Shown here: positions 86-57,594 of the stretch, one piece after another | How positions within the stretch are numbered: position 1 is the stretch's first letter | Layout: each line of letters begins with the position of its first letter | Virus record (IMG/VR): IMGVR_UViG_3300026274_000001 | From: a virus | Lineage: Duplodnaviria > Caudoviricetes | Strand: one strand, 5' to 3' | Length of the DNA: 64,000 nt | Notes under the pieces: generated by a model | Told to the model about the DNA's origin: nothing | Database searches by the model: none | Seen by the model: the letters and a program-made list of their open reading frames with translations, nothing else | Program-made: the position numbers and the translations under genes

Positions 86-122
86 TTGCAACAATGTTCA
101 AGTGAACATATCATTGAGTATG
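86..122 (+). promoter_or_regulatory. early sigma70-type promoter, hairpin family
   Basis: TTGCAA-17-TATCAT; CAAGTGA-N5-TCATTG; ATG at 120 in frame with gene at 141. Confidence 0.75.
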
Positions 123-140
123 ATTAATCAAGGGGGAAAT

Positions 141-500
141 ATGAAGAAACTGATGATGTTGATGCTGCTGTCTGTGGCTACGGTTGCCCATGCGTCAAGC
201 AAGCAAGAATGGGCTGATGCAGTTTGTCGCATCAATGCTAGTGAAGCTTCGGAAATTGCACAGTACCGAGATGCTGGCTTTCCAATCACAGAAGCTTCCA
301 ACCGTGCGATCAAGTTCATGGCAAGCACTGGCCTCTTCAATATGTCCCCTACGTTCAATGATGCCATTATGACTGAGACGTTGGAAATTTATACCACCGA
401 CGTCATCAAGACCGCCCAGCCTGAAGCAATCAAAGAAGCTATTTTGCTGTCGTGTGGTATGGACATTTACGGTGTTCGTCACAGTAAAAAGACGAAATAA
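141..500 (+). CDS. secreted/periplasmic hypothetical protein
   Basis: SD GGGGG; signal peptide MKKLMMLMLLSVATVAHA; Cys near both ends. Confidence 0.75.
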   Translation: MKKLMMLMLLSVATVAHASSKQEWADAVCRINASEASEIAQYRDAGFPITEASNRAIKFMASTGLFNMSPTFNDAIMTETLEIYTTDVIKTAQPEAIKEAILLSCGMDIYGVRHSKKTK

Positions 501-512
501 TTCAGTTGGCAC

Positions 513-552
513 TTGCAACCAGGTTCAAATGAATCTACCATAGGAACATGGT
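513..552 (+). promoter_or_regulatory. early promoter, hairpin family
   Basis: TTGCAA-17-TACCAT; arms ACCAGGTTC/GAACATGGT; ATG at 548 (predicted +1). Confidence 0.85.
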
Positions 553-574
553 AAACAAACGCAAGGAGCAACAA

Positions 575-940
575 ATGGAACTGATGGCAGATACCACCAA
601 TTTCGAATCCCTTACTGTTCGCTGGTTGGCACGGCAGAATGAAGAAGTTGCTGTTGCTCTTGGCCACAAAATGTACTATCAAAGCTTTCACGGTACCAAT
701 GATACTGAAGTTAACGGTGTGTTGGTCGACTTCCAACCGGTACGTGATAGTGCTACGGCATTCAAGCTGATGGTGCAAGAAAACATTCAAGCTCACACTG
801 AACCGCGTGGCGAATACGTGTACGTGACTGCTCATTGCGAAGATGGGCCGGTCTGGTCTAGCACGGTTTTTGCGCACGGTGCTGAAGCCGAAATGCGTCG
901 GCTGATTTGCGTAGCAATCGTCAGCAAATACACGAAGTAG
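575..940 (+). CDS. DUF2591-like phage protein
   Basis: SD AAGGAG; motif DFQPVRDSATAFKL...MRRLICVAIV resembles DUF2591. Confidence 0.6.
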   Translation: MELMADTTNFESLTVRWLARQNEEVAVALGHKMYYQSFHGTNDTEVNGVLVDFQPVRDSATAFKLMVQENIQAHTEPRGEYVYVTAHCEDGPVWSSTVFAHGAEAEMRRLICVAIVSKYTK

Positions 941-958
941 AAATAATTCATTTAGCGC

Positions 959-1000
959 TTTACTTGTGAGTCAAGTGAACGCATCATAGATACATGGTAA
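959..1000 (+). promoter_or_regulatory. early promoter, hairpin family
   Basis: TTTACT-17-CATCAT; CAAGTGA-N5-TCAT; ATGGTAAAC at 994. Confidence 0.75.
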
Positions 1001-1019
1001 ACAACACACGGAGAAATAA

Positions 1020-1469
1020 ATGACTGATCAAGTGAATGTTGCAACTGATGTTAACGGTGTTCGTGAGTGCTTGCCGTTGGGTCCTGTGCACATTTATACG
1101 GTCACGGTGACGAAGTTGCCCTGGGGTGCAGTCGATTCGTGTGTTGCAAGCCTCCCGTTCACTGGTGACGTTACGATCCCGAAAATGTATGTTGACTGGG
1201 CATTGTCGGTTGCTCTTGTTTATGAGTTGTACAAGAAGCTTAACGCGGCACCGATCAACACGGGTATTGTGGCCCTTGTGAAAAGTCTCCGTGACGAAAT
1301 GCATTGCGGATTGACCGAAGCCAAGAAAGTTGCTGACTTGCTGATTGGTCGCAAGAGCGACAAGTACACGAATGCCGGTGGCATTGTTACTGCGTTCATG
1401 TACTACCAGGAAGAAGAAATGACGCTCGCAGAAATCGAAATTCGCAACCAAATGCAAGGACGAAAATGA
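1020..1469 (+). CDS. protein with ribosomal bL12 C-terminal-domain-like motif
   Basis: IVALVKSLRDEMHCGLTEAKKVAD resembles bL12 CTD ([21 protein letters not shown]). Confidence 0.6.
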   Translation: MTDQVNVATDVNGVRECLPLGPVHIYTVTVTKLPWGAVDSCVASLPFTGDVTIPKMYVDWALSVALVYELYKKLNAAPINTGIVALVKSLRDEMHCGLTEAKKVADLLIGRKSDKYTNAGGIVTAFMYYQEEEMTLAEIEIRNQMQGRK

Positions 1470-1906
1470 GCGATGTTCAGTATAAGGTTACACCGATTCA
1501 CTTTCAATTGTTGCTGACAGTGACCCCATCGAATGTAGTTCACAACTGCCAACTTACAATGCCCAACGGCCGAGTTATCGACGTCCCCGCAGTGTTCGTT
1601 GAGTTTGCTCGTACGGTGCGCAACCTAACCGCTATGCTTGACAGGTATGGCCGCCCGCGGGGTATGTCGTCCGGGTTGGTCCCGCTTATTAAAGAAGTAC
1701 GTAGGGCCCTTGATATTGGGCTGTATGATGCCAAGCAACTAGTTGAGGTTCTGGTTGCTCGAGAAGGTTACCAACGAAACTTGGTTACCTATACGTATCT
1801 CGAAGATATGTATGATCCGTATCAAAGCCATATCGATAGCGAACAGGCGGCCGCGGAACTTGACACGGTAAAGCAGATGCTCACCAAAGAAGAAGGTCAT
1901 CAATGA
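1466..1906 (+). CDS. protein with ribosomal bL12 C-terminal-domain-like motif
   Basis: LVPLIKEVRRALDIGLYDAKQLVE; ATGA-coupled to previous gene. Confidence 0.65.
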   Translation: MSDVQYKVTPIHFQLLLTVTPSNVVHNCQLTMPNGRVIDVPAVFVEFARTVRNLTAMLDRYGRPRGMSSGLVPLIKEVRRALDIGLYDAKQLVEVLVAREGYQRNLVTYTYLEDMYDPYQSHIDSEQAAAELDTVKQMLTKEEGHQ

Positions 1907-2301
1907 AGCGCGGCGATATCGTATGGCCTTGCTATGATGGCAAACTGGGACGGGCTGTTCCTGGTGTCGTAGTGCGCACCAAACAAAACAATATGCTGCT
2001 CGTTCGCTTTATTCCTTGGGTGAGTGACACCCAAACTACAATTGACGTATGGTTCCGTCGACGGCTGAACACTCAGGATTCGTATTGGTCGAAAACTGGG
2101 AATAACACTGTTCAGAAATTTGCACCCCGTCATGTGTTCTCTGCATGGGCAATTGAAGACGACACAATGAATATGTTCATTGGTGGTGGACAGGGATCCT
2201 ACTATTTGCTGCGTACCGAAGCGATGATGACTTGGTATGGCCCTCCCGATTTTAAGGAAAAAGAACGCGATACCATTGCTTCATTGCTTGCTACTCTTTA
2301 A
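1903..2301 (+). CDS. hypothetical protein (N-terminal SH3/KOW-like)
   Basis: ATGA overlap; MKRGDIVW...GVVV...LLVRF. Confidence 0.7.
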   Translation: MKRGDIVWPCYDGKLGRAVPGVVVRTKQNNMLLVRFIPWVSDTQTTIDVWFRRRLNTQDSYWSKTGNNTVQKFAPRHVFSAWAIEDDTMNMFIGGGQGSYYLLRTEAMMTWYGPPDFKEKERDTIASLLATL

Positions 2302-2311
2302 GGGGGATAAC

Positions 2312-2695
2312 ATGAAAAAATTGTTAGTTGCCATGGCTCTGGTTTCGATTTCGATCAGCGCATTTGCCGGTAAGCCGAAAACCGAATCGACTGTAACCGG
2401 CTCAGCAATCGTACAGAGCGTGACCATGACTAGCGATACCGTGACTATTGACGATGCCGCGAGATGCAATCAAGAATCATATCAACTTGATGGTATTTTG
2501 CAAGGGCTTGCTGGTGGTATGAGTAAGAAAGCCATCGCCACGCTTATCAAAGACGCCCCGCCAGAAATTGCTGATGCTAACGCATTATTGCGTGATCTAG
2601 AATTGGTGACTAGCGATCCGCACTTTGTGACTGCTGACCCCAGTGTTGTTTTGGGCTTCGTATTCAAAGCGTGTTTGCTGGCTAGTATTCGGTAA
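2312..2695 (+). CDS. secreted hypothetical protein
   Basis: SD GGGGG; signal peptide MKKLLVAMALVSISISAFA. Confidence 0.75.
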   Translation: MKKLLVAMALVSISISAFAGKPKTESTVTGSAIVQSVTMTSDTVTIDDAARCNQESYQLDGILQGLAGGMSKKAIATLIKDAPPEIADANALLRDLELVTSDPHFVTADPSVVLGFVFKACLLASIR

Positions 2696-2708
2696 ATTCA
2701 CTTTGTGC

Positions 2709-2748
2709 TTGCAACCACGTTCATATGAAACTAATATACGAGCATGGT
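2709..2748 (+). promoter_or_regulatory. early promoter, hairpin family
   Basis: TTGCAA-17-TAATAT; imperfect 13-bp inverted repeat; ATG at 2744. Confidence 0.85.
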
Positions 2749-2767
2749 AAACGCAAAGGAGAACAAA

Positions 2768-3259
2768 ATGACGGGAACAGCATTGACGCAAGCAGAAAAG
2801 GTAGCACGTCGCGAACAACGTGCAGCAGAACGCGAAGCACAAGAAGCTCGTGACAATGAACGTCGCGAAGTGGAGCGTAAGGAACGTATGGAAAAGATGC
2901 CTGGCATTTTGTTCAACCTGATGCTGCGTGCTGAAATGTTGCGGCGTGCGGGGATGCAAATCAGTTGCAATCTACACAACGAAATCCCCAAAAGCATGGC
3001 ATCAAATAGCGACCATGTTGGTAAGGTCGGCTTGGTATTTGTTATCGATCACCGAGCAAAGACGCTACTGAGTGAAGACTGGAATGAAGAAGTTAGCGTG
3101 TCGATCGATGCTGCCAGTTGGGAAGTGGAATCCATCGAAAACAAATTGAATGAACTGCAAGACGAAGCTGATGAAAGGCTGAAGCGTAAAGCTTTGGCTG
3201 ACGAAGCAAAGAAATTGTTGACGCCGGATCAATTGGCCGCCTTGCGCGAATTCTCCTAA
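2768..3259 (+). CDS. hypothetical protein (coiled-coil ends)
   Basis: SD AAGGAG; charged helical termini. Confidence 0.75.
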   Translation: MTGTALTQAEKVARREQRAAEREAQEARDNERREVERKERMEKMPGILFNLMLRAEMLRRAGMQISCNLHNEIPKSMASNSDHVGKVGLVFVIDHRAKTLLSEDWNEEVSVSIDAASWEVESIENKLNELQDEADERLKRKALADEAKKLLTPDQLAALREFS

Positions 3260-3269
3260 GGAGTGCAAC

Positions 3270-3686
3270 ATGAATTACACGATTGTTGGTTACAAGCCTG
3301 ATAGTGCGGAAACTAGCCGAGGCTGTGTGATTAAGCGGTACGACAGTGATCATGTACTGTTCTTCACCACTGACGAGTTGGACTTTGTTGAGAAGTGGGC
3401 TGAATTGCTCTTCAAGAATCTGATTCGTAAGCATGGTGAGAGTGAGTACGAAATTACGGCCTTGGTAAATGGTGAAAATCTGAACGATTTGCCAGACACT
3501 CCAGAACTAAGCTATTACAATCTGGCTAATCAAGCTGATCAGAAATATGTTTTATTGCTTAGGGCGCATGAAGAGCGTGAACAGTTGCAGCAGCAAGCGA
3601 GAGCACGAGCACAGTCATCTGCTATAAGAGAATCAGAGCTTTGGCGACTGGCTGAACTGCGGAAAAAGTACGACGGTACTCAATAG
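3270..3686 (+). CDS. hypothetical protein
   Basis: SD AAGGAG; operon context. Confidence 0.75.
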   Translation: MNYTIVGYKPDSAETSRGCVIKRYDSDHVLFFTTDELDFVEKWAELLFKNLIRKHGESEYEITALVNGENLNDLPDTPELSYYNLANQADQKYVLLLRAHEEREQLQQQARARAQSSAIRESELWRLAELRKKYDGTQ

Positions 3687-3747
3687 GCTGGCTGAGAGAG
3701 CCATGGTTACTCTAGTTTAGCTAGCAGCTACGCGGAGTAGTCCCAAA

Positions 3748-3780
3748 GAATGGCGAGCTTAACGGCTCGCCATTCTCATT
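3748..3780 (+). terminator. hairpin, probable terminator
   Basis: GAATGGCGAGC-TTAACG-GCTCGCCATTC. Confidence 0.65.
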
Positions 3781-3790
3781 TAAACGGTGC

Positions 3791-3826
3791 TTGCTACTTT
3801 GTTCATATACACGTATTCTTTAGCAA
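3791..3826 (+). promoter_or_regulatory. sigma70-type promoter
   Basis: TTGCTA-17-TATTCT; TTGCTA/TAGCAA inverted repeat. Confidence 0.55.
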
Positions 3827-3844
3827 ACATCACTCTAATTAATT

Positions 3845-4654
3845 ATGAAAACAAATCCAACATGGCTAGTTCAAATAACAAGTAGGCACGACACTACTAT
3901 CAAGCAGGAAGTTGAATCACTAACTGAACTTGGCCTACCTTGGAAAGATTTTGGGGTAATTCCATTTACGACCGACATCACGGGACTGGATGCGCCTTAT
4001 ACCAACTTTGTTGTGCGTGGTGGCACCAAAGTATTGTCCATGATTACAGATGATCCTACCTTGTGGTTGAAGGATGGTGTCTTTTATGACAAGGATAAGT
4101 TTGACCAGAATCAATACCAGTCCCTGGGTTTGCCACTCTTAAATGCTGATGCAGAGTTCTTCAACCTCCCTGATTTTCCGTACCTGATGTTTGAGCAGGA
4201 AATGTTCGTGAAGCCTTCCAGTGACTTGAAAGCATTCACAGCCGGAATATTGGAAGTAGGTCAGAGCGTGCAGGAGTTTATTGGCGCACAGATGCATCAA
4301 TCGAATGCATTCTCAGAAATCATTCTAGCCGCTGAAGCAAAGACGGTGATTGATGAGTACCGCTTCTTTGTACTAAACGATCAAGTCATTACTGGGTCAC
4401 AATACCGGGTTAACCAGCAACTGCGCTATACCGCACTTACAAATTCTGCGGAACATGTTTCAGTGCTAAAAGTTGCACAAGATTACGCAAAATTGTATCA
4501 GCCTGCCGAGGTATTCACGCTTGATATTGGTAAGACGGTAGACGGGGTCTACTCTATTATAGAATATAACTGTTTCAATGCATCAGGTTTGTACGCTTGC
4601 GATGTGAATCTGTTGTTTACTACAATCAGTAATTTTGTAAGGTCTCGTGTTTAG
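3845..4654 (+). CDS. ATP-grasp protein, R2K/DUF4343-like
   Basis: FVKPSSDLKAFTAG; EYRFFVLNDQVITGSQYR; FTLDIG; IIEYNCFNASGLY. Confidence 0.8.
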   Translation: MKTNPTWLVQITSRHDTTIKQEVESLTELGLPWKDFGVIPFTTDITGLDAPYTNFVVRGGTKVLSMITDDPTLWLKDGVFYDKDKFDQNQYQSLGLPLLNADAEFFNLPDFPYLMFEQEMFVKPSSDLKAFTAGILEVGQSVQEFIGAQMHQSNAFSEIILAAEAKTVIDEYRFFVLNDQVITGSQYRVNQQLRYTALTNSAEHVSVLKVAQDYAKLYQPAEVFTLDIGKTVDGVYSIIEYNCFNASGLYACDVNLLFTTISNFVRSRV

Positions 4655-4758
4655 TAAGACCACATAAAATGGTGGCATGTACTATCATTGTTGGTAGGCT
4701 GATAGGTTTGTCTGGTAGGTATAACAATAATTTAACTGAAAAATAGAACATGGTTCAC

Positions 4759-4795
4759 TTGATTCACTTACCATATGAACGTATCATTAGTGAAT
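4759..4795 (+). promoter_or_regulatory. early promoter, hairpin family
   Basis: TTGATT-17-TATCAT; ATTCACT/AGTGAAT arms; CATATGA-N5-TCAT. Confidence 0.8.
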
Positions 4796-4819
4796 ACACA
4801 AGAGCTAGGGGAGTTGATC

Positions 4820-5275
4820 ATGAGTGAACAAAATGAGTGTAGTGAAGCAGATGCACTTAATGACTACGATGACGAAGATTTTGAATTTGTCAACGGCAAC
4901 GCTGAAGAGGGTGGTGAATTTGTAATCTTCCCCAACAAGCTGCGTGAAGAGGTTGCTCACTCGTTATTGGCTCTACATCATTCAAGAGTGGTTGAGCAAG
5001 AAGATACACGAACACAGGCTGAAGTCATTGCTGACATGAAAGCCCGGTACGTGGTCGCGAAAGCAGCCAAGGTTGGAGAAATCATCGAATGTGCTTGCTG
5101 TGCGAAGAAAGTGGTAAAGACTTCGTATCAGATGGCATTCTGCTCCAACGGCAAGAATAGAAAGAACACCCTGTTGGGAAACAATAACTGCAAGGACCGT
5201 TTCTGGAACTTGACGGATGACAAGCGTCGTCCCTTAGCAATCAAGTTCGTGGAGAAACGTAATGTTAAAGCTTAA
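4820..5275 (+). CDS. hypothetical Zn-binding protein with acidic N-terminus
   Basis: SD AGGGGAG; CACC...C...C. Confidence 0.7.
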   Translation: MSEQNECSEADALNDYDDEDFEFVNGNAEEGGEFVIFPNKLREEVAHSLLALHHSRVVEQEDTRTQAEVIADMKARYVVAKAAKVGEIIECACCAKKVVKTSYQMAFCSNGKNRKNTLLGNNNCKDRFWNLTDDKRRPLAIKFVEKRNVKA

Positions 5276-5525
5276 TTGGTTGTTCTCCGATTGCCCCACT
5301 TGTGATAACCACAGCCCAGGCTACTGCAACGGTAATATGGTGGCGATTGAAGACCAGGGGGTTGTTGACACTCGAGATGGTGAATCTTACGGTGTCGTAT
5401 ACTACTGTGATCATTGTGATACGGTATGGCAGATCACCACTGGAATTCGTAAAGAGGCCGAAGCGCTTTACGATGAAGAACGTGAATCGTACCTGGTCAC
5501 TATGCGCGAACAACAGGAAGAGTAG
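5262..5525 (+). CDS. Zn-ribbon hypothetical protein
   Basis: CPTC...CDHC. Confidence 0.7.
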   Translation: MLKLNWLFSDCPTCDNHSPGYCNGNMVAIEDQGVVDTRDGESYGVVYYCDHCDTVWQITTGIRKEAEALYDEERESYLVTMREQQEE

Positions 5526-5583
5526 TTGCTTTTTTTGTGTGAACGTATAATACCAAAGTTGTTCAACTTTGGGAGAACAGTTT

Positions 5584-6036
5584 ATGTTTGCGGCCACCAA
5601 AGCAGCAATTGACGAACGAGCCCTAAATGAATATTTGAGTGTTGACTGTATTTTTCAGCAAACCCTTGAATATATTGAATGCATTAGCAGTGCCTTTCAT
5701 CCTTTACATGTATTATGGGGCAATGTTAGAGTAAGTGAAATTCGTGAAATCACCGACTTTTACGGCTCGCCACTGCTCATGAAATATTTCACTGATAGTG
5801 TCGTACTACACATTATTGGTAGTGCTATTGGGATGCGACGACACCTGACCACCCAAGCTGGTGATCGATGTTATATAAACAGTCACGGCAATCAACACGA
5901 AGCAGTCAAACTGCTTATGGCGTATTACAGCAAGGGCAATCCTCCAGTCACACTTGCACGCTCGCAAGAATTGAATGAAATTTACCTGATGTGGGAAGAG
6001 CGCTGCCCTCAGTTGCGTTATGTGAATTCGTTTTAA
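5584..6036 (+). CDS. hypothetical protein
   Basis: ORF in co-oriented block; start uncertain (5569 or 5584). Confidence 0.6.
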   Translation: MFAATKAAIDERALNEYLSVDCIFQQTLEYIECISSAFHPLHVLWGNVRVSEIREITDFYGSPLLMKYFTDSVVLHIIGSAIGMRRHLTTQAGDRCYINSHGNQHEAVKLLMAYYSKGNPPVTLARSQELNEIYLMWEERCPQLRYVNSF

Positions 6037-6087
6037 CCATACCATCCTCGTATATAATACAAAAACCATATATTTGAATGTACTAAC

Positions 6088-6327
6088 ATGAGTGGTTACG
6101 GTAAACCTGATGAAGAGCAAGAAAATGCCCAAGCGATGGTTGACAACGCGGTTGGGCTCGCCCGTTTGATGATTCCCAAAGGACCATCTGCAAAATACTG
6201 TGGCGATTGTTTGGAACCAATCCCACAAGCACGCAGAGAAGCACAGCCAGGTTGCAAGTATTGTATAAGCTGTCAAGTGAATCACGATCGTCCACCAAAT
6301 CTCCGAGTGGTCACCAAAATGCTGTAG
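6088..6327 (+). CDS. TraR/DksA C4-type zinc finger protein
   Basis: CGDCLEPIPQARREAQPGCKYCISCQ. Confidence 0.88.
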   Translation: MSGYGKPDEEQENAQAMVDNAVGLARLMIPKGPSAKYCGDCLEPIPQARREAQPGCKYCISCQVNHDRPPNLRVVTKML

Positions 6328-6337
6328 GAGTCCCACC

Positions 6338-6544
6338 ATGTATAACCCAGAAGATGACCTCTTCAAGTACAAGCAAATACATGACAGTCGTATCGAGGTG
6401 TATTCGGGGGCCGTGATGGTGGGTAACATCGTGAAGCGGGGTGACAAGTACCAATACCTACCCAGCAACAGTAGGCGCAAGACGGGATTTTTCAAAACGT
6501 TAGATGATATAAAAGCATTCATTAATGGTGATGACATGGCGTAA
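6338..6544 (+). CDS. hypothetical protein
   Basis: SD AGGAG. Confidence 0.7.
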   Translation: MYNPEDDLFKYKQIHDSRIEVYSGAVMVGNIVKRGDKYQYLPSNSRRKTGFFKTLDDIKAFINGDDMA

Positions 6545-6548
6545 ATGC

Positions 6549-6600
6549 TTGAACTCCCATTCATATGAATATAGAATGAGCTCCATAGAGGGGCTCATTC
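6549..6600 (+). promoter_or_regulatory. promoter with downstream hairpin
   Basis: TTGAAC-17-TAGAAT with CATATGAA; GAATGAGCTCC/GGGGCTCATTC hairpin 6574-6600. Confidence 0.65.
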
Positions 6601-6615
6601 TATTTGGAGAACGAC

Positions 6616-49983: not shown

Positions 49984-49985
49984 GA

Positions 49986-50946: not shown

Positions 50947-51053
50947 GTGTCACCTTTACATCATTGGATGGCTTGTGGTGCGCGCCATTCTAGTTATTAA
51001 GCACCCACACTATATCGATATTCTGGTACGTGTGGTGAGCTTTGTACGACGTC

Positions 51054-51317: not shown

Positions 51318-51335
51318 AGCGTTCTCCTATCTATA

Positions 51336-51374
51336 ATATGGAATCATGATACGTTCATGTGAAAACCATATCAA
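51336..51374 (-). promoter_or_regulatory. early promoter, hairpin family
   Basis: TTGATA-17-TATCAT; ATATGG/CCATAT arms; CACATGA-N5-TCATG. Confidence 0.85.
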
Positions 51375-51802
51375 GCTTGAAGGTAATTGAAGCCAGAATA
51401 AGAATTGAGTTTGGCAAGAACTGCCATTGCCGCCCCGCTAATTGGCTTAACGATACGCTCATGTCTGTGATGAACATGGTAGTCCTTATCGTCACCTTCT
51501 TTGCGGAAAAGCATTGAATGCATGGGCATGTATTTACCACCCCAAGGAGTCTTGTATCCGTATTTGTTCTCGTAATCTTCCATGTCAAACACTACCGTCC
51601 AGCGTGGGCCGAAGGGTTTGCCATGATCGTTGAGAAAGCGAAATCGTTCACCATTTTGTAGATGGCACAATTGCACCCGTTGCGCCAAATTGCCATCTGC
51701 TTGCCAATCAGCGTGCCTATCATGGTATTTGAACGGGATGCCTTGTGCTAACCTTTCCGCTTTACTGAGTTTTATAGGTTTGCGGCTAGGATTCATCAAC
51801 AT
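51371..51802 (-). CDS. hypothetical protein
   Basis: SD GGAGG. Confidence 0.7.
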   Translation of the reverse strand: MLMNPSRKPIKLSKAERLAQGIPFKYHDRHADWQADGNLAQRVQLCHLQNGERFRFLNDHGKPFGPRWTVVFDMEDYENKYGYKTPWGGKYMPMHSMLFRKEGDDKDYHVHHRHERIVKPISGAAMAVLAKLNSYSGFNYLQA

Positions 51803-51904
51803 TCACAGACCTCCTCCAAAGTTATTTCTGGCGCTTGTATTGACTAAGAGCATAACAGCAGTTGCCACAATAACGACAGCAATTTTTGCGAGAATAATGG
51901 TCAT
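51803..51904 (-). CDS. small membrane peptide (33 aa)
   Basis: MTIILAKIAVVIVATAVMLLV...; fills the gap between genes. Confidence 0.45.
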   Translation of the reverse strand: MTIILAKIAVVIVATAVMLLVNTSARNNFGGGL

Positions 51905-51905
51905 T

Positions 51906-52325
51906 TTAGAGGAGTCCCATCAGTTTGAGAACTTTGTCACGAGTTTCGATTGTCATACCGCAACGAAGAATGGATGTATCAAGCTCTGTTTCCTCCAGGC
52001 GCCGCTCCAGATTACGAGGAGTGCACAGACCATCATCGTGAAGGCAAGCAGCCAAAGTATTGATAACTGCCTGGCCTGAAACACAACGATAATGTGCCTC
52101 ACGCTTTTCATTGACATATTCAACGAATACAATTCTCGGCATGGGAACACGAAGCAGCATCAATTTCAGGATATTTTCATCAATTGTGTGTTCGATGTTG
52201 GTGATAGGCATGTTTCGAATAACCTCGAGTGCCACTCGGTTGCGTCGTTCCATAACGTCAACGGGGCTAGAAGTAACCGGTTCCATATCACCAAAACTTT
52301 GAAGTTGTTCAGTCAAATTGATCAT
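51906..52325 (-). CDS. degenerate DUF262/ParB-like domain protein
   Basis: LMLLRVPMPRIVF...YRCVSGQAVINTL (compare YxVIDGQQRLTTL). Confidence 0.5.
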   Translation of the reverse strand: MINLTEQLQSFGDMEPVTSSPVDVMERRNRVALEVIRNMPITNIEHTIDENILKLMLLRVPMPRIVFVEYVNEKREAHYRCVSGQAVINTLAACLHDDGLCTPRNLERRLEETELDTSILRCGMTIETRDKVLKLMGLL

Positions 52326-52339
52326 TTCTTATCCCTTGT

Positions 52340-52639
52340 TTAATCTTCGTCGTCTGGGAAATCTTCAGCATCTTGTTGAATCGCGTTCCACAATGCTTCT
52401 TTTACGATCACTTCCCACAAAAAGCCATCGGGGTGATCTTCGTTGAACATGTCAACTTCGACAAACTTAAGTGGAACATTGTGATCCAGAGCGAAGTTGT
52501 TTGCTTGCGTAATAACTTCGTCAATTTCTTCTTCCGTGAAGTCACTGAACAACTCCAGAAATTCTTGAAAAACGCGATCAGTTGGGAAATATTGTTCCAG
52601 TTCATCATCACGTAGTGACTGTACTTGCTTGTTCACCAT
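52340..52639 (-). CDS. highly acidic hypothetical protein
   Basis: About 28 D/E vs 5 K/R in 99 aa (hand count). Confidence 0.75.
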   Translation of the reverse strand: MVNKQVQSLRDDELEQYFPTDRVFQEFLELFSDFTEEEIDEVITQANNFALDHNVPLKFVEVDMFNEDHPDGFLWEVIVKEALWNAIQQDAEDFPDDED

Positions 52640-52656
52640 TTCTGTTCCCCTTGTTT

Positions 52657-52700
52657 GTTTACCATGTTCAAATGATACATTCACCTAAACATGGTTACAA
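52657..52700 (-). promoter_or_regulatory. early promoter, hairpin family (41-bp identical to 41499-41539)
   Basis: TTGTAA-17-TATCAT; ATG at 52665. Confidence 0.9.
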
Positions 52701-52703
52701 GCG

Positions 52704-53195
52704 TTATTCGATTATTTTTGCGATTTTCAGCAAACGATTGATATCATTCGATAATGCTTTGCTGACAATCTCGGTCGAGTTGTACATGAATTGGTCATAC
52801 TCTACTTTCTGAACCTCTTCGAACGTGGGAATGGCCAGTAACTCGAGTCCAGCAGCGCTTGATTCATTTCGAGCCCTAAGTCGTTCATTTGTGGTCTGGA
52901 GTTGTTGAATGAGTTTCCCGTAGAAATCGTTCCACAGTGTAGTTCGATTTAGATCCTTGATATCGGCTCGCGGATAAACTTCGCCGAGACGTTCCCATTT
53001 TGCCCCAGGTCCGAGGACCATAAGATCAATATGATTGGCCAGGAACTCAGTATTGTTGAACTCGAAAGTGATACGAAGCCGAGTCTCATACCCTTGATAG
53101 TCACGAAGCCCCAATCTGGGACCTTGATAATATGATTCATATCGAGTCACATTGTCTTCCACGAACAGCTGATCTTGCATGAACTTGATCGTCAT
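52704..53195 (-). CDS. hypothetical protein
   Basis: SD AGGAG. Confidence 0.7.
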   Translation of the reverse strand: MTIKFMQDQLFVEDNVTRYESYYQGPRLGLRDYQGYETRLRITFEFNNTEFLANHIDLMVLGPGAKWERLGEVYPRADIKDLNRTTLWNDFYGKLIQQLQTTNERLRARNESSAAGLELLAIPTFEEVQKVEYDQFMYNSTEIVSKALSNDINRLLKIAKIIE

Positions 53196-53217
53196 TAATT
53201 TCTCCTGGTTGCCAGAA

Positions 53218-53613
53218 TTACTTGGTTAAGACTGCGACCACTTGCTGGGGATATTTCAAGAATTGTGTACCCATGTATTCAAGCTTTACTTTTTGTTCAG
53301 TGAAGCCGATCACCTGGCAAATACACAGCGCATCTGTATATCCAGCAACATTTGTGGCTACCCGGCCATTGATCTCAATGTCGTTGCCCACTACGTCGAG
53401 CATTCGCACAAGCACGCTTGCATGTTGACAGAACAAGCGCTGGAACACACTCTTTTCTTCGCCGTTGCTGTCACGCATCACGACATGCGGTTCTCCGTAA
53501 GGGGTTCCGTCGGCGCGTTCAGTTTCAACACGGACAAAGAACACGCGCTTCCAGCCACCATAAGAAACGGGAGTGCCTACATGCATGCAACTCATTTGCG
53601 CTTGCGAGATCAT
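53218..53613 (-). CDS. hypothetical protein
   Basis: SD GGAG. Confidence 0.7.
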   Translation of the reverse strand: MISQAQMSCMHVGTPVSYGGWKRVFFVRVETERADGTPYGEPHVVMRDSNGEEKSVFQRLFCQHASVLVRMLDVVGNDIEINGRVATNVAGYTDALCICQVIGFTEQKVKLEYMGTQFLKYPQQVVAVLTK

Positions 53614-53629
53614 TTTTTGCTCCGTGTTT

Positions 53630-53682
53630 TGATAATCAAATGATAAATTCACCTACCACTTTATGCAAGCGGTAGGTGAATT
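53630..53682 (-). promoter_or_regulatory. early promoter with hairpin enclosing the -35
   Basis: TTGCAT-17-TATCAT; AATTCACCTACC/GGTAGGTGAATT. Confidence 0.85.
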
Positions 53683-53695
53683 ATTTTCGAATAGC

Positions 53696-54259
53696 TTAGT
53701 CTGCGTCAAATGCCGTGATATACACTTTATGGCCAACCAGAAGTTCCAGTTCCTTGGAAGCTTTTGCCCTGTCGTAACGGTTACTGATATTACGGATGCT
53801 GAATTGGTAGCCAGTACCAAAGCCTGAGGGGTGATACGAGTGGACTTTACCAGCTTTGAGTGTTGCGATCATGTTGTCGATCGCCTCTTGGGTCATGAAC
53901 AAAGTGACCGGGCCCAAGTTGCATTTGGTGCTGCTTGCAAGACGCTGTTGTGCTTTGCGAGCGCGTTCGACTTGCTCTTGGAACTGTTTTCGAAGTATGT
54001 CCAGTGACTCGAAGTAGAAGCTAGCTTCTACTCCTAGACGATCGAATGAAAATTCCGAACCCGCAGCTTTGTACCGTGTTTCGCAGTGGACATACTTGCC
54101 CGAAAACGTCATTTCGATTCGCATACCATCACCGACGGGTAACGACATAATAAGCGTTTCGCTGTTTCCACTTGGCGTGCGTTCGACCGTGGTGGGCGGA
54201 ATTTCACGTGCAAATTCTTCCATCTTTTCTTGAACGAAATCGATCAGTTCCATCTGCAT
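53696..54259 (-). CDS. hypothetical protein
   Basis: SD GGAG. Confidence 0.75.
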   Translation of the reverse strand: MQMELIDFVQEKMEEFAREIPPTTVERTPSGNSETLIMSLPVGDGMRIEMTFSGKYVHCETRYKAAGSEFSFDRLGVEASFYFESLDILRKQFQEQVERARKAQQRLASSTKCNLGPVTLFMTQEAIDNMIATLKAGKVHSYHPSGFGTGYQFSIRNISNRYDRAKASKELELLVGHKVYITAFDAD

Positions 54260-54270
54260 ATCTCCGGTAG

Positions 54271-54312
54271 TGTCCATTACCAGATGATATGTTCATGTAA
54301 ATGAAAAAGCAA
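54271..54312 (-). promoter_or_regulatory. early promoter, hairpin family
   Basis: TTGCTT-17-TATCAT; ATG at 54277 in frame with gene. Confidence 0.85.
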
Positions 54313-54317
54313 GCCGT

Positions 54318-54345
54318 AAAAAAGGACCCTTGTAGGATCCTTTTC
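54318..54345 (-). terminator. intrinsic terminator after the kinase gene
   Basis: AAAAGGATCCT-ACA-AGGGTCCTTTTTT on the - strand. Confidence 0.75.
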
Positions 54346-54352
54346 CAGCTAG

Positions 54353-56377
54353 TTAGTTCACAGTATTTTCCATCGAGTCATCTAAAATTTTCTGTACTTT
54401 GTTATAATCTACTGGCTTTGTTAAGTGATAGTCAAAACCTGCATTGAATGCCATCTTCTTATCAGTATCTTGCCCATACCCCGTGACTGCTACAATTACT
54501 ATTCCTCTCAGCTTGGGATCTGAACGGATCTGCTGAGCAACTTCATATCCGGTTAGAATCGGTAGGCCTATGTCCAGCAGCACCACGTTGGGATATGTAT
54601 GTTCTACTGCGGTTAAAGCGGTAGGGCCGTCGTACGCCTTGGTTACGACGTGGCCTGACATTTCGACAAGCATTGCTAGACTATCTGCGGCATCAGTGTT
54701 GTCATCCACAACAAGCACTCGTAATTCCCTCGTTGCTCTGCGAGTTTCTTGGGGTATATTATTCTCAATTGGAAATGACGGCGCTCGAACTATTGGTAAA
54801 GTAACAACAAATTCACTTCCTTTACCCAATACGCTATAAATGTCAACGTGGCCACCGTGCATTTCAACTAGTCTATGGACTAACGCAAGCCCGATACCCA
54901 AACCGCCGCGAGAACGATCTAGTGACCGTTCTGATTGCGAAAACAAGTCAAAGATTCTAGGTAGTAGTTCAGGCGCAATGCCCACCCCAGTGTCACTTAA
55001 TCGTATAACGCATTCTTTCTTGTCATCAAGTGTCACACTTAGCGCAATTTTCCCACCATTGTTGGTGTACTTTGCCGCATTGGTAAGCAGATTAACGATG
55101 ATTTGTTCCAAACGAGCTGCATCTGCATGTAGCCAAATTGGTTCGAGGGAAAGAGTCACGGTTAAATCATGCTCATGTTCGATAATGAGCGGCATTGCTG
55201 AAGCAACCGCGTTTTCAATTACACCGTTCATTAGAACGAGATCGTTTCTAAGTTGTACACGTCCGGTAGTTATGCGCGCCACTTCCATCAAGTCATCAAC
55301 TAACCGAGTCAATTGCACAACTTGACGTTCAATCATAGTTCTAGCTTGATGTTGAAGGGGATCTTCGTCCTGCTGTAACCTTAGAATTTGAACGGCATTG
55401 GAAATGGGAGCAAGCGGATTTCGTAATTCATGACTAAGCATCGCCAGGAATTCATCTTTTCTACGATGTAAATCAGCGAGTGTTTCAGCCTGCTCTTGCA
55501 GCTGACGTTCCATTACGAAGCGTTCGCTGATGTCACGTATGTTGCATTGCGCAACTGCATGTTTTCCCACCAGGTATATGTTGCTTATGAATTCAACTTC
55601 AACTGTTTTGCCATTTTTTGATTCTAATGGCAAGTGTTCATAACGCACATACCCTTGTTTTTGTAATTCAGCATACATGTTCAAACTAGCTTGCTTATCG
55701 CCGAAGAATCCAAACTCCCAAAGCTCATGATTCATAAGCTCATCGTGATCATAACCAAGCAAATCAGATATAAATTTGTTTGCGTCAATGATTTTTAATG
55801 AAGTAGCGTCAAGTACTAGGATTCCATCCTTTGCACTTTGAAACAGTCGTCGATATTGCAATTCGGATGTCTGTACCGCTATCGCATCTAATTGTCGTTC
55901 AGTGGCATCTCTAAAGATCAAAACTGCCCCAGTAGTACCGCTTTTAGTGCTCCTGATTGGTGCCGCACTATCATCTATTGGCCGCTCTGTTCCATCTTTC
56001 GCAATCAAGAGAGCGTATTTCCCAATATCGGTTATTTCATTTATTGCTAGAGCTAATGATATTGGCTCTTCAATTGCTTTTCTGGTTTTGCTATTGATTA
56101 GCCTAAAGACCTTGGACAATGGCAGGCCTACTGCTTCTTCCTGTGTCCAACCAGTCAATGCTTGCGCTACTGGGTTCAAAAATACGATGACGCCATTGGC
56201 GTCAGTTGTTATTACCGCATCACCAATACTGGCGAGTGTTGCATCAAGTAAGTCGCGCTGTATGCGAACAGACTCGATTGTTTCTTCAACGGGATTGATC
56301 ATGTGAAGCTCCGAAGCAACGTCAGATCTACGAAGTGATTCAATACTTTCATCACTAGAAGCTTGATACTGTAGCAC
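54353..56377 (-). CDS. hybrid sensor histidine kinase (PAS-PAC, PAS, HisKA, HATPase_c, receiver)
   Basis: H-box LSHELRNPL; NLLTNAAKYT; DTGVGI; GGLGIGL; receiver VVDDN, LLDIGLP, TKP; start uncertain (56377 GTG or 56302 ATG). Confidence 0.92.
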   Translation of the reverse strand: MLQYQASSDESIESLRRSDVASELHMINPVEETIESVRIQRDLLDATLASIGDAVITTDANGVIVFLNPVAQALTGWTQEEAVGLPLSKVFRLINSKTRKAIEEPISLALAINEITDIGKYALLIAKDGTERPIDDSAAPIRSTKSGTTGAVLIFRDATERQLDAIAVQTSELQYRRLFQSAKDGILVLDATSLKIIDANKFISDLLGYDHDELMNHELWEFGFFGDKQASLNMYAELQKQGYVRYEHLPLESKNGKTVEVEFISNIYLVGKHAVAQCNIRDISERFVMERQLQEQAETLADLHRRKDEFLAMLSHELRNPLAPISNAVQILRLQQDEDPLQHQARTMIERQVVQLTRLVDDLMEVARITTGRVQLRNDLVLMNGVIENAVASAMPLIIEHEHDLTVTLSLEPIWLHADAARLEQIIVNLLTNAAKYTNNGGKIALSVTLDDKKECVIRLSDTGVGIAPELLPRIFDLFSQSERSLDRSRGGLGIGLALVHRLVEMHGGHVDIYSVLGKGSEFVVTLPIVRAPSFPIENNIPQETRRATRELRVLVVDDNTDAADSLAMLVEMSGHVVTKAYDGPTALTAVEHTYPNVVLLDIGLPILTGYEVAQQIRSDPKLRGIVIVAVTGYGQDTDKKMAFNAGFDYHLTKPVDYNKVQKILDDSMENTVN

Positions 56378-56413
56378 GGAACCTATTGTTCGTTTATTAA
56401 GATTACCTGACCA

Positions 56414-56686
56414 TCAACTGGTTGTTGACAGTATCATCTGCAGATATTCCGCTGGAGTACCAACATGATGTACCCAGAGATTTCCTGAAATAATTGAAGT
56501 TGTATTGGTATCAAGGTTACGAATGAATACCGCGGTATTGCTGTATTCAGCTCCGTAACTTGGTGGGATGGATATACGGACAAAGACTGGTTGTTTTAGG
56601 TGAGACAGTCTTTGTATTGATCGGTAGCAGTCAAGTTCAAACATGTCACCTTCAACCATGTCTTTTATCAAACACTTTCCTTTCAC
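56414..56686 (-). CDS. hypothetical protein
   Basis: GTGA overlap with upstream gene. Confidence 0.55.
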   Translation of the reverse strand: MKGKCLIKDMVEGDMFELDCYRSIQRLSHLKQPVFVRISIPPSYGAEYSNTAVFIRNLDTNTTSIISGNLWVHHVGTPAEYLQMILSTTS

Positions 56687-57075
56687 TTTACGGCAACCAG
56701 GTTCTGGGTGAACCATTCATCGAGTGTGCAAATGTCGATTTCATACACTTTCTTCAATTCAGAGCTGTAAAAGTGTGTGAAATTCCAGTGTTGTCCAAAC
56801 AGATTGACTTCGGTATCAAACTTAGGGACGCGATTATTGAATCGCCATTCGCTGATTTGTTCAACAGTCACACCGCGTTTATTACGAAATGTTTTTTCAG
56901 CCTGGTCATACTCGGAGTAGCAATCCAACAAATCTTGTTGGGCACGAACCGCTCGCATAACTTCAGCTTCGATATCAACCAGCAGTTGTTCAGCTGAATC
57001 GTATTCTACCGGCATCACATGATCGCATGAATACGTGTATCCGTCACCAGTAGAAAAACAAACGACTAATTTCAT
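56683..57075 (-). CDS. hypothetical protein
   Basis: ATGA overlap; SD GAGGAG. Confidence 0.7.
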   Translation of the reverse strand: MKLVVCFSTGDGYTYSCDHVMPVEYDSAEQLLVDIEAEVMRAVRAQQDLLDCYSEYDQAEKTFRNKRGVTVEQISEWRFNNRVPKFDTEVNLFGQHWNFTHFYSSELKKVYEIDICTLDEWFTQNLVAVK

Positions 57076-57347
57076 GCTATCTCCTCATCGATCTTCCGCA
57101 ACATCGCAGATTTCCAATCCGTTGAACCCAACGTAGCATTGCCGATCCATGCGAAAGCGGGAATGTGTTCAATCTCAACATCCTTCCACTTGTTGAGGTG
57201 ACCGACTGATGACCAAAAGCTACGGCGAACTTGAAGTACTTGATAATGCTCCACAGTTGCTTCCGTGTAGCCCCGTTCAAGTTCTTTCACTGCCCGACGC
57301 ACTACGCGATGCAGCTTGCCTTTATATTGAAACCCCTTGTAGTCCAT
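57072..57347 (-). CDS. hypothetical protein
   Basis: Operon context. Confidence 0.7.
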   Translation of the reverse strand: MDYKGFQYKGKLHRVVRRAVKELERGYTEATVEHYQVLQVRRSFWSSVGHLNKWKDVEIEHIPAFAWIGNATLGSTDWKSAMLRKIDEEIA

Positions 57348-57349
57348 GA

Positions 57350-57538
57350 TTACTCGTCGCTTTCTTGCAACAGCGATTCAGCAGCTTGACGTCGCTGCGC
57401 TATGCGCATCAGTGCGGATGCATCAACTTTGTTAGTAATTCCGGTAAACATCGAAGCATTAAACGGCTCAATTGCGATATCAAACACTGGAATGCCAAGC
57501 GCTGCTGCAACTGCCTTCATATCAGCCGACGTGATCAT
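57350..57538 (-). CDS. hypothetical protein
   Basis: SD AGGAG. Confidence 0.7.
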   Translation of the reverse strand: MITSADMKAVAAALGIPVFDIAIEPFNASMFTGITNKVDASALMRIAQRRQAAESLLQESDE

Positions 57539-57554
57539 TTTGCTCTCCTGTTAT

Positions 57555-57594
57555 TTGTTAACCAGATGATGCATTCACCTGACCAGTAAGTCAA
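57555..57594 (-). promoter_or_regulatory. early promoter, hairpin family
   Basis: TTGACT-17-CATCAT; CAGGTGA-N5-TCATCTG. Confidence 0.85.

Follow-up and report, generated by a model that had tools for sequence, protein, structure and literature searches.

The 64,000-nucleotide stretch of DNA analysed here (the window), from an uncultured soil phage, carries 34 copies of a promoter cassette in which the -10 hexamer lies inside an inverted repeat. On balance, these cassettes are probably regulatory modules of the PeSL (promoter-early stem-loop) type, placed ahead of small accessory genes of a T4-related jumbo phage, with a stem-loop that would act in read-through RNA. Judged by its anatomy, the cassette is a lineage-specific variant of PeSL, and no new kind of control would be at work. 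Our analysis documents how many copies the family has, that their geometry is fixed, that three genomes conserve it and that its arms covary.

Results

The cassette family

An iterated weight-matrix scan located the 34 copies, 25 on the plus and 9 on the minus strand, and returned none from a shuffled relative. Each cassette is about 65 bases long and stands ahead of one of 34 small genes, always co-oriented with it. The original prediction of more than 30 promoters with the -10 box in an inverted repeat is borne out by this count; that nearly every intergenic gap carries one was overstated (32 of about 77 gaps of at least 45 nt, by crude gene calls), though the family is real.

The elements follow the order gCTTGnnn, 17 nt, TA(T/C)CAT, TTGAACATGGTAAACA, Shine-Dalgarno sequence and start codon. 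The hexamers (cTTGnnn and TAnCAT, 16-17 nt apart) are sigma70-like. Within the -10, A at position 2 is conserved, T at position 6 is invariant (123/123 sites), and a non-consensus C that completes a TCA half-site is present in 94 of 123 sites. The 12-nt leader (ATGGTAAACAAC) is conserved and A/C-rich, the Shine-Dalgarno sequence is of GGAG type, and the start codon lies 31-44 nt 3' of the -10. In gaps of 54-82 nt the upstream stop codon is found 0-25 nt 5' of the -35, where AT content is weakly enriched (0.62-0.64 vs 0.56 in the window overall). A generic sigma70 consensus scan was not enriched (40 vs 38.5 in shuffles); the family-specific matrix is the sole informative promoter scan here.

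In the inverted repeat the -10 occupies the loop and the 3' arm: its first two bases lie in the 5-nt loop and the hexamer itself contributes four bases to the stem. As originally described, a TGA stands at -18 to -16 when +1 is placed 7 nt after the -10; this predicted +1 falls within the 3' arm. The longest stems have 15 bp; TTCAnnTGAA, the left arm, is a palindrome by itself. The dyad CANRTGA-N5-TCATYTG, also part of the original prediction, occurs 27 times in the window with at most one mismatch, against 0.74 expected (maximum per shuffle 4), and away from cassette promoters its single match, with one mismatch, is at 15545. Half-cassette remnants sit 5' of some sites, and arms are shared within sub-families (17151 with 363220 of the relative G001; 41520 with 52677). 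No Rfam family matched the cassette at gathering score, and a search for antisense RNA to the conserved leader found no extra reverse-complement copies. The leader ATG was rejected as an in-frame leaderless start, distances to annotated starts showing no frame preference by inspection.

The family sites are listed with the position of the -10, weight-matrix (PWM) score in bits, register pairs, folding energy (dG) and z score where these apply.

86-129, plus: family cassette; -10 TATCAT at 109; PWM 42.2 bits; 7/15 register pairs, dG -7.0
513-556, plus: family cassette; -10 TACCAT at 536; 57.4 bits; 11/15 pairs, dG -10.1
959-1002, plus: family cassette; -10 CATCAT at 982; 48.7 bits; 5/15 pairs, dG -7.7
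2709-2752, plus: family cassette; -10 TAATAT at 2732; 48.8 bits; 12/15 pairs; ortholog G001 269879
4759-4802, plus: family cassette; -10 TATCAT at 4782; 36.3 bits
6549-6592, plus: weak, marginal family cassette; -10 TAGAAT at 6572; 15.0 bits
7353-7396, plus: family cassette; -10 TACCAT at 7376; 35.4 bits; poor -35 (TAGATT)
8370-8413, plus: family cassette; -10 TATCAT at 8393; 57.7 bits; short left arm GCCATATGA, paired round a 6-nt bulge
9227-9270, plus: family cassette with non-consensus 14-bp stem, CCAGACTTAGATGA/TCATTTGAGTCTGG; -10 at 9250; dG -19.7, z -3.9
10193-10236, plus: family cassette; -10 TACCAT at 10216; 48.4 bits; 12/15 pairs, dG -13.7
10483-10526, plus: family cassette; -10 TATAAT at 10506; 48.2 bits; TGA retained, -10 without TCA
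10978-11021, plus: family cassette; -10 TATCAT at 11001; 60.7 bits; 13/15 pairs, dG -12.6
11386-11429, plus: family cassette; -10 TACTAT at 11409; 46.3 bits; canonical terminator 5' at 11338-11364
11960-12003, plus: family cassette; -10 TACTAT at 11983; 51.7 bits
13351-13394, plus: weak family cassette; -10 CATCAT at 13374; 23.4 bits; overlaps upstream ORF end
13867-13910, plus: family cassette with 16-nt spacer; -10 at 13890; 31.2 bits
15363-15406, plus: family cassette; -10 at 15386; 53.6 bits; dG -12.2, z -3.1
16414-16457, plus: family cassette; -10 at 16437; 52.7 bits
17128-17171, plus: family cassette with AGCCAGATGA/TCATCTGGCT stem; -10 at 17151; dG -17.6, z -3.7
17454-17497, plus: family cassette; -10 TACCAT at 17477; 45.7 bits; hairpin nearly absent (dG -1.9)
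21736-21779, plus: family cassette; -10 TATTAT at 21759; 41.9 bits; 12/15 pairs
24804-24847, plus: family cassette; -10 CATCAT at 24827; 52.0 bits
32324-32367, plus: marginal family cassette; -10 at 32347; 12.2 bits; AAAGCCATAT/ATATGGCTTT 11-bp stem, then T-rich tail, z -3.7
32840-32883, plus: family cassette with 16-nt spacer; -10 at 32863; 26.0 bits; BLAST matches to many G001 sites
36053-36096, plus: family cassette; -10 at 36076; 29.8 bits; ortholog G001 285401
41500-41543, minus: best family cassette; -10 at 41520; 64.6 bits, dG -18.3; 15-bp stem including 3 G:U pairs; ortholog G001 290690, the differences between them preserving wobble pairing
41907-41950, minus: family cassette; -10 at 41927; 52.9 bits; ortholog G001 291148
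44716-44759, minus: family cassette; -10 at 44736; 27.0 bits
45461-45504, minus: weak family cassette; -10 at 45481; 22.7 bits; 5/15 pairs
51331-51374, minus: family cassette; -10 at 51351; 37.4 bits
52657-52700, minus: family cassette, near-copy of 41520; -10 at 52677; 63.7 bits; 15/15 pairs, dG -18.3
53625-53668, minus: family cassette whose strongest hairpin, TTCACCTAC/GTAGGTGAA, encloses the -35; -10 at 53645; z -6.8; compensatory C:G to G:C in G001 303678
54269-54312, minus: family cassette; -10 at 54289; 38.5 bits; T-run hairpin 5' of cassette, own hairpin weak
57551-57594, minus: family cassette; -10 CATCAT at 57571; 39.8 bits, z -3.6

Outside the family, the following features bear on the argument.

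38002-38038, plus: non-family promoter TTGACT-17-TATCAT; a 13-bp stem of its own, TGGCTCATATGAT/ATCATATGAGCCA, surrounds the -10
37461-37497, plus: non-family TTGACT, then a 13-bp hairpin of different sequence (RNAfold of the gap, whole-gap dG -31.3)
24258-24278, plus: non-family promoter hairpin AGTTGCCAT/ATGGCAACT over a TAATAT -10
47029-47059, minus: canonical terminator, 13-bp stem and T run; loop contains a -10-like CAATAT behind TTGATG, showing that this genome can superimpose promoter and true terminator
50629-50946, minus: candidate DNA-binding gene; Cro/YdaS/HTH_28 matches (E 0.002-0.008) below cut-offs; G001 homologue 54% identical

Base pairing in the inverted repeat

Matched arms of the window sites paired in 66.7% of cells against 60.8 ± 1.4% in same-core shuffles (0/500 as high), an excess that the original prediction had called for. 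Cells changed on both sides numbered 59, vs 41.4 ± 5.2 in shuffles, and slid registers gave 32-44% pairing. When the window was combined with the 89 sites of G001, stem positions 8-16 held 510 Watson-Crick pairs vs 393 ± 15, and over 142 sites from three genomes real sites were 2.7 kcal/mol more stable than chimeras (p 2e-9). Because matched arms out-pair mismatched arms, the inverted repeat appears to be selected as a base-paired structure, beyond its fixed sequence. The unrelated stems at non-family promoters likewise argue for selection on pairing as such.

The claim that the arms vary from site to site yet still pair held for the outer arms and for the free core position (stem position 5, with 53 Watson-Crick pairs vs 33 expected), but not for the inner TGA/TCA pairs, which showed no covariation with -10 variants (mutual information about 0). 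The inner TGA is unchanged where the -10 is TACCAT, TAGAAT or TATAAT; like the CA and the loop-proximal A, it scarcely varies across sites. The five examples originally quoted (9233, 17138, 21743, 38008 and 41504-41538 on the minus strand) are present as written; the 15-bp pairing of the last requires counting three G:T pairs, and the stem at 21743 is interrupted by one mismatch and includes two wobble pairs. Extension of the dyad to 9-15 bp, described as usual, applies to roughly a third of sites: 14/34 window sites reach at least 9 bp with at most one mismatch, and RNAalifold returned no consensus structure for the 34. At least 12 bp at the same tolerance is attained by 19% of sites, many stems being 3-7 bp or bulged, and only 11/34 window sites have z < -2 vs dinucleotide shuffles.

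The Watson-Crick excess corresponds to a z of 8.4, with G:T slightly depleted relative to expectation. Within helices G:U is commoner than A:C (52 vs 20 overall, 14 vs 1 at position 5); the outer stem has no G:U excess (17 vs 16). The sense RNA folds 1.1 kcal/mol better than the antisense, and under composition control the sense-minus-antisense difference is -1.14 at real sites vs -0.59 in chimeras (p 0.054).

An intrinsic (Rho-independent) terminator is a G+C-rich stem directly followed by a U tract. Over the 8 nt 3' of the cassette stem the T fraction is 0.12 and A makes up 53%, with at least four T in 4/142 sites, and with no U tract after the stem the cassette hairpins are not canonical intrinsic terminators. 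A terminator-like scan of positions 1-20000 passed a single family site, 17151. Hairpins located behind a canonical terminator are weaker (-8.6 vs -10.8 kcal/mol, one-sided p 0.04, n=12 vs 130). Pairing of the left arm with a TTCAYYTG element upstream, as a second hairpin, was rejected, as overall it did not exceed the chimera control (5.25 vs 5.34); it is real in single cases only, 53645 and G001 303678.

Relatives and transcripts

Two uncultured relatives carry further cassettes, 89 in G001 (the closest complete relative, a 524-kb phage) and 19 in G002 (a 290-kb fragment), strand-matched and confined to small-gene regions. G001 encodes a T4-type Gp23 capsid protein (E 2e-81) and shares only 39 of the window's 130 genes; on that count the window would be a hyperplastic region. 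The motif is conserved though proteins common to the genomes are only about 50% identical, and at orthologous sites double changes keep pairing in 18/30 initially paired cells, vs about 37% by chance. By a DUF2828 protein (49-50% identity), the GAP32/CBB jumbo phages are the nearest cultured relatives. Searches of 50,697 phage records by megablast (8 kb), tblastn (a 713-aa ORF) and blastn (the best cassette) were unproductive; by blastn the cassette matched no deposited phage genome, and a related-locus search with one 160-aa protein found no match. In G001, sigma70 region 2 had no match; nor did AsiA and RegA, in searches that were run without a positive control and say little.

Contigs from a low-depth soil RNA run begin at 4804, 9284 and 13912, which is 10, 22 and 10 nt past the predicted starts of sites 4782, 9250 and 13890, a weak hint of the promoter activity that we infer for the cassettes.

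Discussion

PeSL cassettes were described in the T4-type coliphages RB49 and phi1 by Arbiol et al. 2010 (PMC2839356). Their layout is an upstream stop codon, a sigma70-like promoter, a stem-loop, a Shine-Dalgarno sequence and a start codon, with stem-loops mostly between -35 and -10 or overlapping the -10 (PMC2839356). The cassettes reported here have the same layout, dozens of copies among small, poorly conserved genes, G-T pairs tolerated in the stems and the T4 capsid lineage; sigma70-like hexamers, an in-cassette stem-loop, Shine-Dalgarno sequence and start codon are all found, in copies clustered in hyperplastic small-ORFan regions. Since this anatomy matches T4-type PeSLs, whose stem-loops commonly lie over the -10, we regard the cassettes as a variant, and not as the distinct structure-based control layer originally proposed.

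The variant has its own features. Whereas the RB49 stem is poly-G/poly-C, here a conserved CAnRTGA/TCAYnTG core is joined to ATGTTCA/TGAACAT or other arms, and the TATAAT -10 of RB49 and phi1 is replaced by TA(T/C)CAT, which supplies four stem bases. There is no U tract, the 12-nt leader is conserved, and upstream AT-richness is only slight; the traits of PeSLs include an AT-rich tract with the stop codon 5' of the -35, and mini-circles from recombination of neighbouring cassettes (PMC2839356). The PeSLs and PmSLs of T4/PST and KVP40/nt-1 (Comeau et al. 2014, PMC4122927) similarly show a lineage-specific promoter and stem consensus, clusters in hyperplastic regions and degraded 'half' cassettes, but their stem-loop stands just upstream of the promoter and ours over the spacer, -10 and start site. 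The RpoD-like early promoters of GAP32/CBB are likewise host-type and concentrated among short hypothetical genes, with no hairpin component reported (PMC5259590).

According to the PeSL reading, the module would begin a few bases past the upstream stop codon and present a host sigma70-type promoter, then the A/C-rich leader, GGAG ribosome-binding site and start codon, the inverted repeat overlying spacer, -10 and start site. The cassette's own transcript would contain the 3' arm only, and hence the hairpin could form only in read-through RNA from an upstream promoter, where it would sit directly behind the upstream cistron. There it may attenuate transcription, or else generate the 3' end of the upstream message or stabilise that message, which is what has been proposed for PeSL stem-loops. 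Intrinsic terminators and REP-type stabilisers also place a stable hairpin right behind a cistron in polycistronic RNA, but here the U tract is missing and the element is fused to a promoter. One PeSL stem-loop terminated as well as rrnB T1 (PMC2839356). Among the three mechanisms originally put forward, a hairpin formed in read-through RNA agrees best with the data, although the fit is weak; we lean weakly towards a structure acting as RNA rather than DNA. In favour of this inferred role are the tolerance of G:U inside helices, the better folding of the sense strand and the weaker hairpins behind canonical terminators; against it are the missing U tract, strong folding in only about a third of copies, the lack of a G:U excess in the outer stem and a strand bias that composition control leaves weak. 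None of the results points to the joint shut-off of early genes that was proposed with these mechanisms.

An operator was another of those mechanisms: a dimeric phage or host protein would bind the 19 bp of CAnRTGA-N5-TCAYnTG, a dyad with its centre at the upstream edge of the -10, and would repress or tune all promoters together, the longer arms being secondary. Such a protein could explain the invariant core, as the inner TGA, CA and loop-proximal A are held independently of the -10 variants, the non-consensus C completes the TCA half-site and the left arm reads as a palindrome. G001 also has a conserved counterpart of a small protein that gives a weak Cro/HTH-like signal. However, a protein site needs no covariation of the free core position and outer arms within sites, which the operator leaves unexplained; the dyad is essentially absent away from promoters, and no HTH candidate rose above a curated threshold (of those suggested at 7869, 20239 and 50629, the last has a sub-threshold Pfam signal and the other two no HTH signal). 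We consider an operator unlikely. Sites of host transcription factors such as CRP, FNR and LexA would not fit the cassette in their spacing.

It is similarly doubtful that the cassette has no regulatory role and was spread or homogenised by recombination between copies, with palindrome and partial covariation reflecting sub-family descent or a hairpin that serves recombination itself, for example as a cleavage or slippage site. Such exchange would suit the arm-sharing sub-families, the half-cassette remnants, and the crossover mapped to the loop of a stem-loop in RB49, where PeSL shuffling by recombination was proposed (PMC2839356). It would also suit a two-gene block (G001 266886-267793) with a cassette at either end, which is absent from G002, where one hybrid-looking cassette (274617) is left. 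Against this, cassette-bearing genes show no excess of synteny breakpoints when the two closer relatives are compared (4/16 breakpoints vs 11/33 genes), as counted per gene in genomes too diverged for base-level junctions. The unrelated stems of non-family promoters, the pairing kept through double changes at orthologous sites and the conservation of the motif between genomes with only about 50% protein identity also speak against it. Joints and loose ends of sequencing runs at cassettes (sides of 20-28 letters) were rejected as recombinants; they occur as before/behind pairs on the two sides of the conserved core, and we read them as other cassette copies elsewhere in the genome.

Still less probable is a structure at the DNA level, in which a cruciform or folded non-template strand hides or exposes the -10 under the influence of supercoiling or a hairpin factor, N4-like in spirit. 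Selection mainly for Watson-Crick pairs, the marginal strand bias under composition control and the first two -10 bases in the loop favor it, but a cruciform needs long near-perfect arms, and two thirds of copies have short or interrupted stems; G:U also exceeds A:C inside helices. Promoters of the N4 virion RNA polymerase have a 5-7 bp hairpin with a 3-nt loop, 5' of +1, and no -35/-10 boxes. The cassettes share with them an inverted repeat at a phage early promoter and are not of their type, having canonical boxes, a 5-nt loop, stems to 15 bp and the predicted +1 in the 3' arm; the boxes, at 17-nt spacing, point to ordinary duplex recognition.

One observation lies outside the PeSL-type model: the inner TGA and the unusual -10 C are conserved irrespective of pairing, which hints at sequence-specific recognition. 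Regardless of pairing, the apical core persists in over 140 copies across three genomes and forces the non-consensus C, and so may be a recognition site for a factor. That a dedicated phage factor binds the CAnRTGA/5-nt loop/TCAYnTG apex in folded RNA or extruded DNA, switching all early promoters or transcripts together, is a long shot; if true, it would be a combined sequence-plus-structure global switch, of a kind not known from T4-type phages.

In conclusion, PeSL-type cassettes, known from classical T4-type phages with genomes of 160-250 kb, would by our results also occur in an uncultured clade of soil phages roughly half a megabase in size. With more than 100 copies per genome, they may there organise how accessory genes are expressed. 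What makes the variant instructive is that its -10 forms part of the stem, at the cost of a departure from the sigma70 consensus. A hairpin without a U tract suggests that the label 'promoter plus terminator' may not describe how the stem-loop acts, and the 142 well-aligned sites offer a ready set for asking how PeSL stem-loops work in general.

Results

Window, relatives and habitat

The window has a G+C content of 44% and ~130 ORFs, most of them small. These lie on the plus strand up to 39.7 kb, on the minus strand from there to 58.2 kb and on the plus strand beyond. Its DNA is present in soil and peat metagenomes, and also in soil metatranscriptomes. No DNA-level similarity to it was found among deposited phage genomes, and a pattern search of IMG/VR for the promoter cassette described below matched two uncultured contigs, referred to here as G001 and G002.

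Relatives carrying the cassette
G001: IMGVR_UViG_3300037418_001546, 523,836 bp, direct terminal repeats, rated complete
G002: IMGVR_UViG_3300044693_000177, 290,322 bp, fragment

The major capsid protein of G001 is of the T4 type (Pfam Gp23, E 2e-81), and only 39 of the 130 window genes are shared with this contig; we therefore regard the window as an accessory, hyperplastic region of a phage related to T4. The 270-310 kb region of G001 is collinear with the window except for one inversion, a ~14-kb minus-strand block (window 44200-57800) whose homologues lie on the plus strand at G001 302000-310800; the cassettes in this block have flipped together with their genes. The following window genes have recognizable products, four of them accessory enzymes amid ORFans.

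Window genes with recognizable products
3845-4654 (+): ATP-grasp enzyme (R2K clade), accessory
28453-29916 (+): DUF2828/DUF7788 protein, 49-50% identity to proteins from GAP32/CBB/BF jumbo phages (350 kb), called "RNA-binding protein" in some phages of the GAP32/CBB type; 65% identity in G001, the most conserved window gene
54353-56377 (-): hybrid histidine kinase, 674 aa, with PAS, HisKA, HATPase_c and receiver domains; 35% identity to its G001 homologue (about 460-462 kb)
57591-58196 (-): GNAT acetyltransferase, accessory
58793-59503 (+): PLD-like nuclease or phosphodiesterase, accessory
61181-61789 (+): dCMP/cytidine deaminase, accessory

A family of predicted promoter cassettes

The dyad CANRTGA-N5-TCATYTG occurs 27 times in the window against 0.74 expected, and an iterated weight matrix of 76 nt finds 34 family sites, named here by the first base of the -10. 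The same matrix finds 19 sites in G002 and 89 in G001 (0 when the genome is shuffled); in these relatives they are restricted to small-gene regions (180-500 kb in G001) and nearly all lie on the gene strand. The cassette consensus reads gCTTGnnn, 17 nt containing yCAnrTGAA, TA(T/C)CAT, TTGAACATGGTAAACAAC, GGAG and a start codon, the last 31-44 nt downstream of the -10, and the stop codon of the preceding gene falls 0-25 nt upstream of the -35. All five hairpins quoted in the original prediction are in the sequence as written; its statement that nearly every intergenic gap carries such a promoter was too broad, as family sites occupy only 32 of about 77 gaps of at least 45 nt.

Family cassettes are scarce at 24-38 kb, where other promoters occur, e.g. 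TTGACA-16-TATAAT (25272) and TTGACG-16-TATAAT (36866), accompanied by hairpins of the GCCA...TGGC type and by several canonical terminators (28.2, 29.9, 32.0, 33.3 and 38.5 kb); this stretch may represent a different temporal class. Non-family promoters at 24258, 37467 and 38008 have unrelated hairpins around their -10. An extra element, (G/A)TTCATTTRG, is found at about -47 to -38 in 34 of the 142 cassettes (e.g. window 32826-32840 and G001 291782, 341081 and 352747). In several G001 copies this element belongs to a canonical terminator hairpin, of which it is the T-rich tail; the copies at G001 303678 and 344924 resemble a left arm remaining from an older, truncated cassette, a "half PeSL" (PeSL, promoter-early stem-loop cassette of T4-type phages). 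Furthermore, the -10 variant TACCAT (offsets 0-5) and the conserved leader ATGGTA (offsets 12-17) are exact reverse complements, and RNAfold often favors the 6-bp hairpin that they form over the long one (e.g. 536, 16437).

Base pairing of the repeat

The register was fixed by pairing TGA with the -10's TCA across a 5-nt loop. In this register 66.7% of the window cells are paired, compared with 60.8 +/- 1.4 in shuffles that combine each left arm with right arms of other sites (0/500 as high) and 32-44% in slid registers. The refuting condition set in the original prediction, arm complementarity not exceeding that of shuffles with the same core, thus does not hold, and the claim of a base-paired structure survives. 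Cells changed on both sides number 59, where shuffles predict 41.4 +/- 5.2. For the window and G001 together, stem positions 8-16 contain 510 Watson-Crick pairs versus 393 +/- 15 expected and at most 314 in slid registers. When bulges were allowed, real sites were 2.7 kcal/mol more stable than chimeras pairing each left arm with the right arms of other sites (n=142, p 2e-9). Quite unlike arms still pair, as in CCAGACT/AGTCTGG (9250), AGCCAG/CTGGCT (17151) and TTTATCG/CGATAAA (G001 278290), and among 20 orthologous site pairs pairing was kept after double change in 18 of 30 initially paired cells.

The pairing has its limits. RNAalifold gave no consensus structure for the 34 window sites, fold z was below -2 in only 11 of them, and among all sites only 32% reached -12 kcal/mol and only 19% formed 12 bp with one mismatch or none. 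Covariation was altogether absent from the inner three or four pairs, and the TGA is retained whether the -10 is TACCAT, TAGAAT or TATAAT. Pairing accounts for neither the invariant spacer CA..TGAA nor the conserved ATGGTAAAC leader; these may serve promoter strength or translation, or may be recognized by a factor. The sole HTH-like candidate (50629-50946) gave a signal below threshold, and homologues of AsiA, RegA or sigma70 region 2 were not detected in G001 by searches of which two of three lacked a positive control.

Possible promoter activity in soil RNA runs

Assembled contigs provided the RNA-run evidence. Coverage was patchy in three low-depth RNA runs and flat, at 28x, in a DNA run, so that the RNA libraries appear to hold genuine phage RNA. 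Two large ORFs without Pfam matches, 39815-41119 (-) and 41960-44101 (-), were nearly bare in these RNA runs, in contrast to the covered small genes on either side; their expression may be timed differently from that of the small genes. Three of the eight contigs listed for run X7 start at 4804, 9284 and 13912, i.e. 10, 22 and 10 nt past the predicted starts of cassettes 4782, 9250 and 13890. A repeat-induced contig break is unlikely, since deeper runs continue uninterrupted across the same places. Chance is also an unlikely cause (about 5e-4), although this is a rough estimate and contigs cannot prove a start.

Discussion

With their canonical boxes and a predicted start within the 3' arm, the cassettes are not N4-like. 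Nor are the family hairpins canonical terminators, the 8 nt 3' of the stem being A-rich and T-poor (53% A, 12% T). Canonical terminators are used elsewhere in the window, and the loop of one of them (47029-47059) contains a -10-like hexamer preceded by a TTGATG box. Family hairpins with a canonical terminator just upstream (n=12) are weaker (-8.6 vs -10.8 kcal/mol, one-sided p 0.04), which suggests some redundancy between the two.

Several observations bear on whether the repeat acts as DNA or RNA. G:U-type pairs outnumber A:C-type pairs within helices (52 vs 20) and at the single freely variable core position (14 vs 1), but not appreciably in the outer stem (17 vs 16). Sense RNA is more stable than antisense by 1.1 kcal/mol (p 4e-4); however, the difference is already -0.6 in chimeras, and the site-specific remainder is marginal (p 0.054). 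Stems that are short, bulged or wobble-containing suffice for an RNA element and suit cruciform extrusion poorly. We therefore lean, without strong proof, towards a role at the RNA level, in read-through transcripts.

In the PeSLs of RB49 and phi1, the stop codon of the upstream gene falls within AT-rich sequence and is followed by a sigma70-like promoter, by a stem-loop usually placed between the two boxes or over the -10, and by a Shine-Dalgarno sequence and start codon (Arbiol et al. 2010, PMC2839356). They are concentrated in hyperplastic regions, ORFans are shuffled by recombination between them, and one PeSL stem-loop matched rrnB T1 in lowering downstream lacZ (PMC2839356). Stem and promoter consensus differ by T4 sub-lineage, and degraded half-cassettes exist (Comeau et al. 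2014, PMC4122927). In the nearest cultured relatives, the CBB paper describes RpoD-like early promoters in a small-gene region; hairpins were not reported (PMC5259590). As regards shuffling, a two-gene block flanked by two cassettes (G001 266886-267793) is missing in G002, where homology stops 6 nt into the -10. This is the single clean example of a cassette-bounded indel, and at gene resolution breakpoints were not statistically enriched at cassettes.

Apart from the AT-rich tract, for which the enrichment is weak, the features of PeSL anatomy are all present in the window cassettes. They differ from PeSLs in a conserved stem core formed in part by the -10, a non-consensus C in the -10, the lack of a U tract and a conserved leader. 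Since the anatomy is that of a PeSL, the distinct structure-based control layer of the original prediction is given up, and, as judged from sequence, the window cassettes are filed as a putative lineage-specific variant of the PeSL kind.
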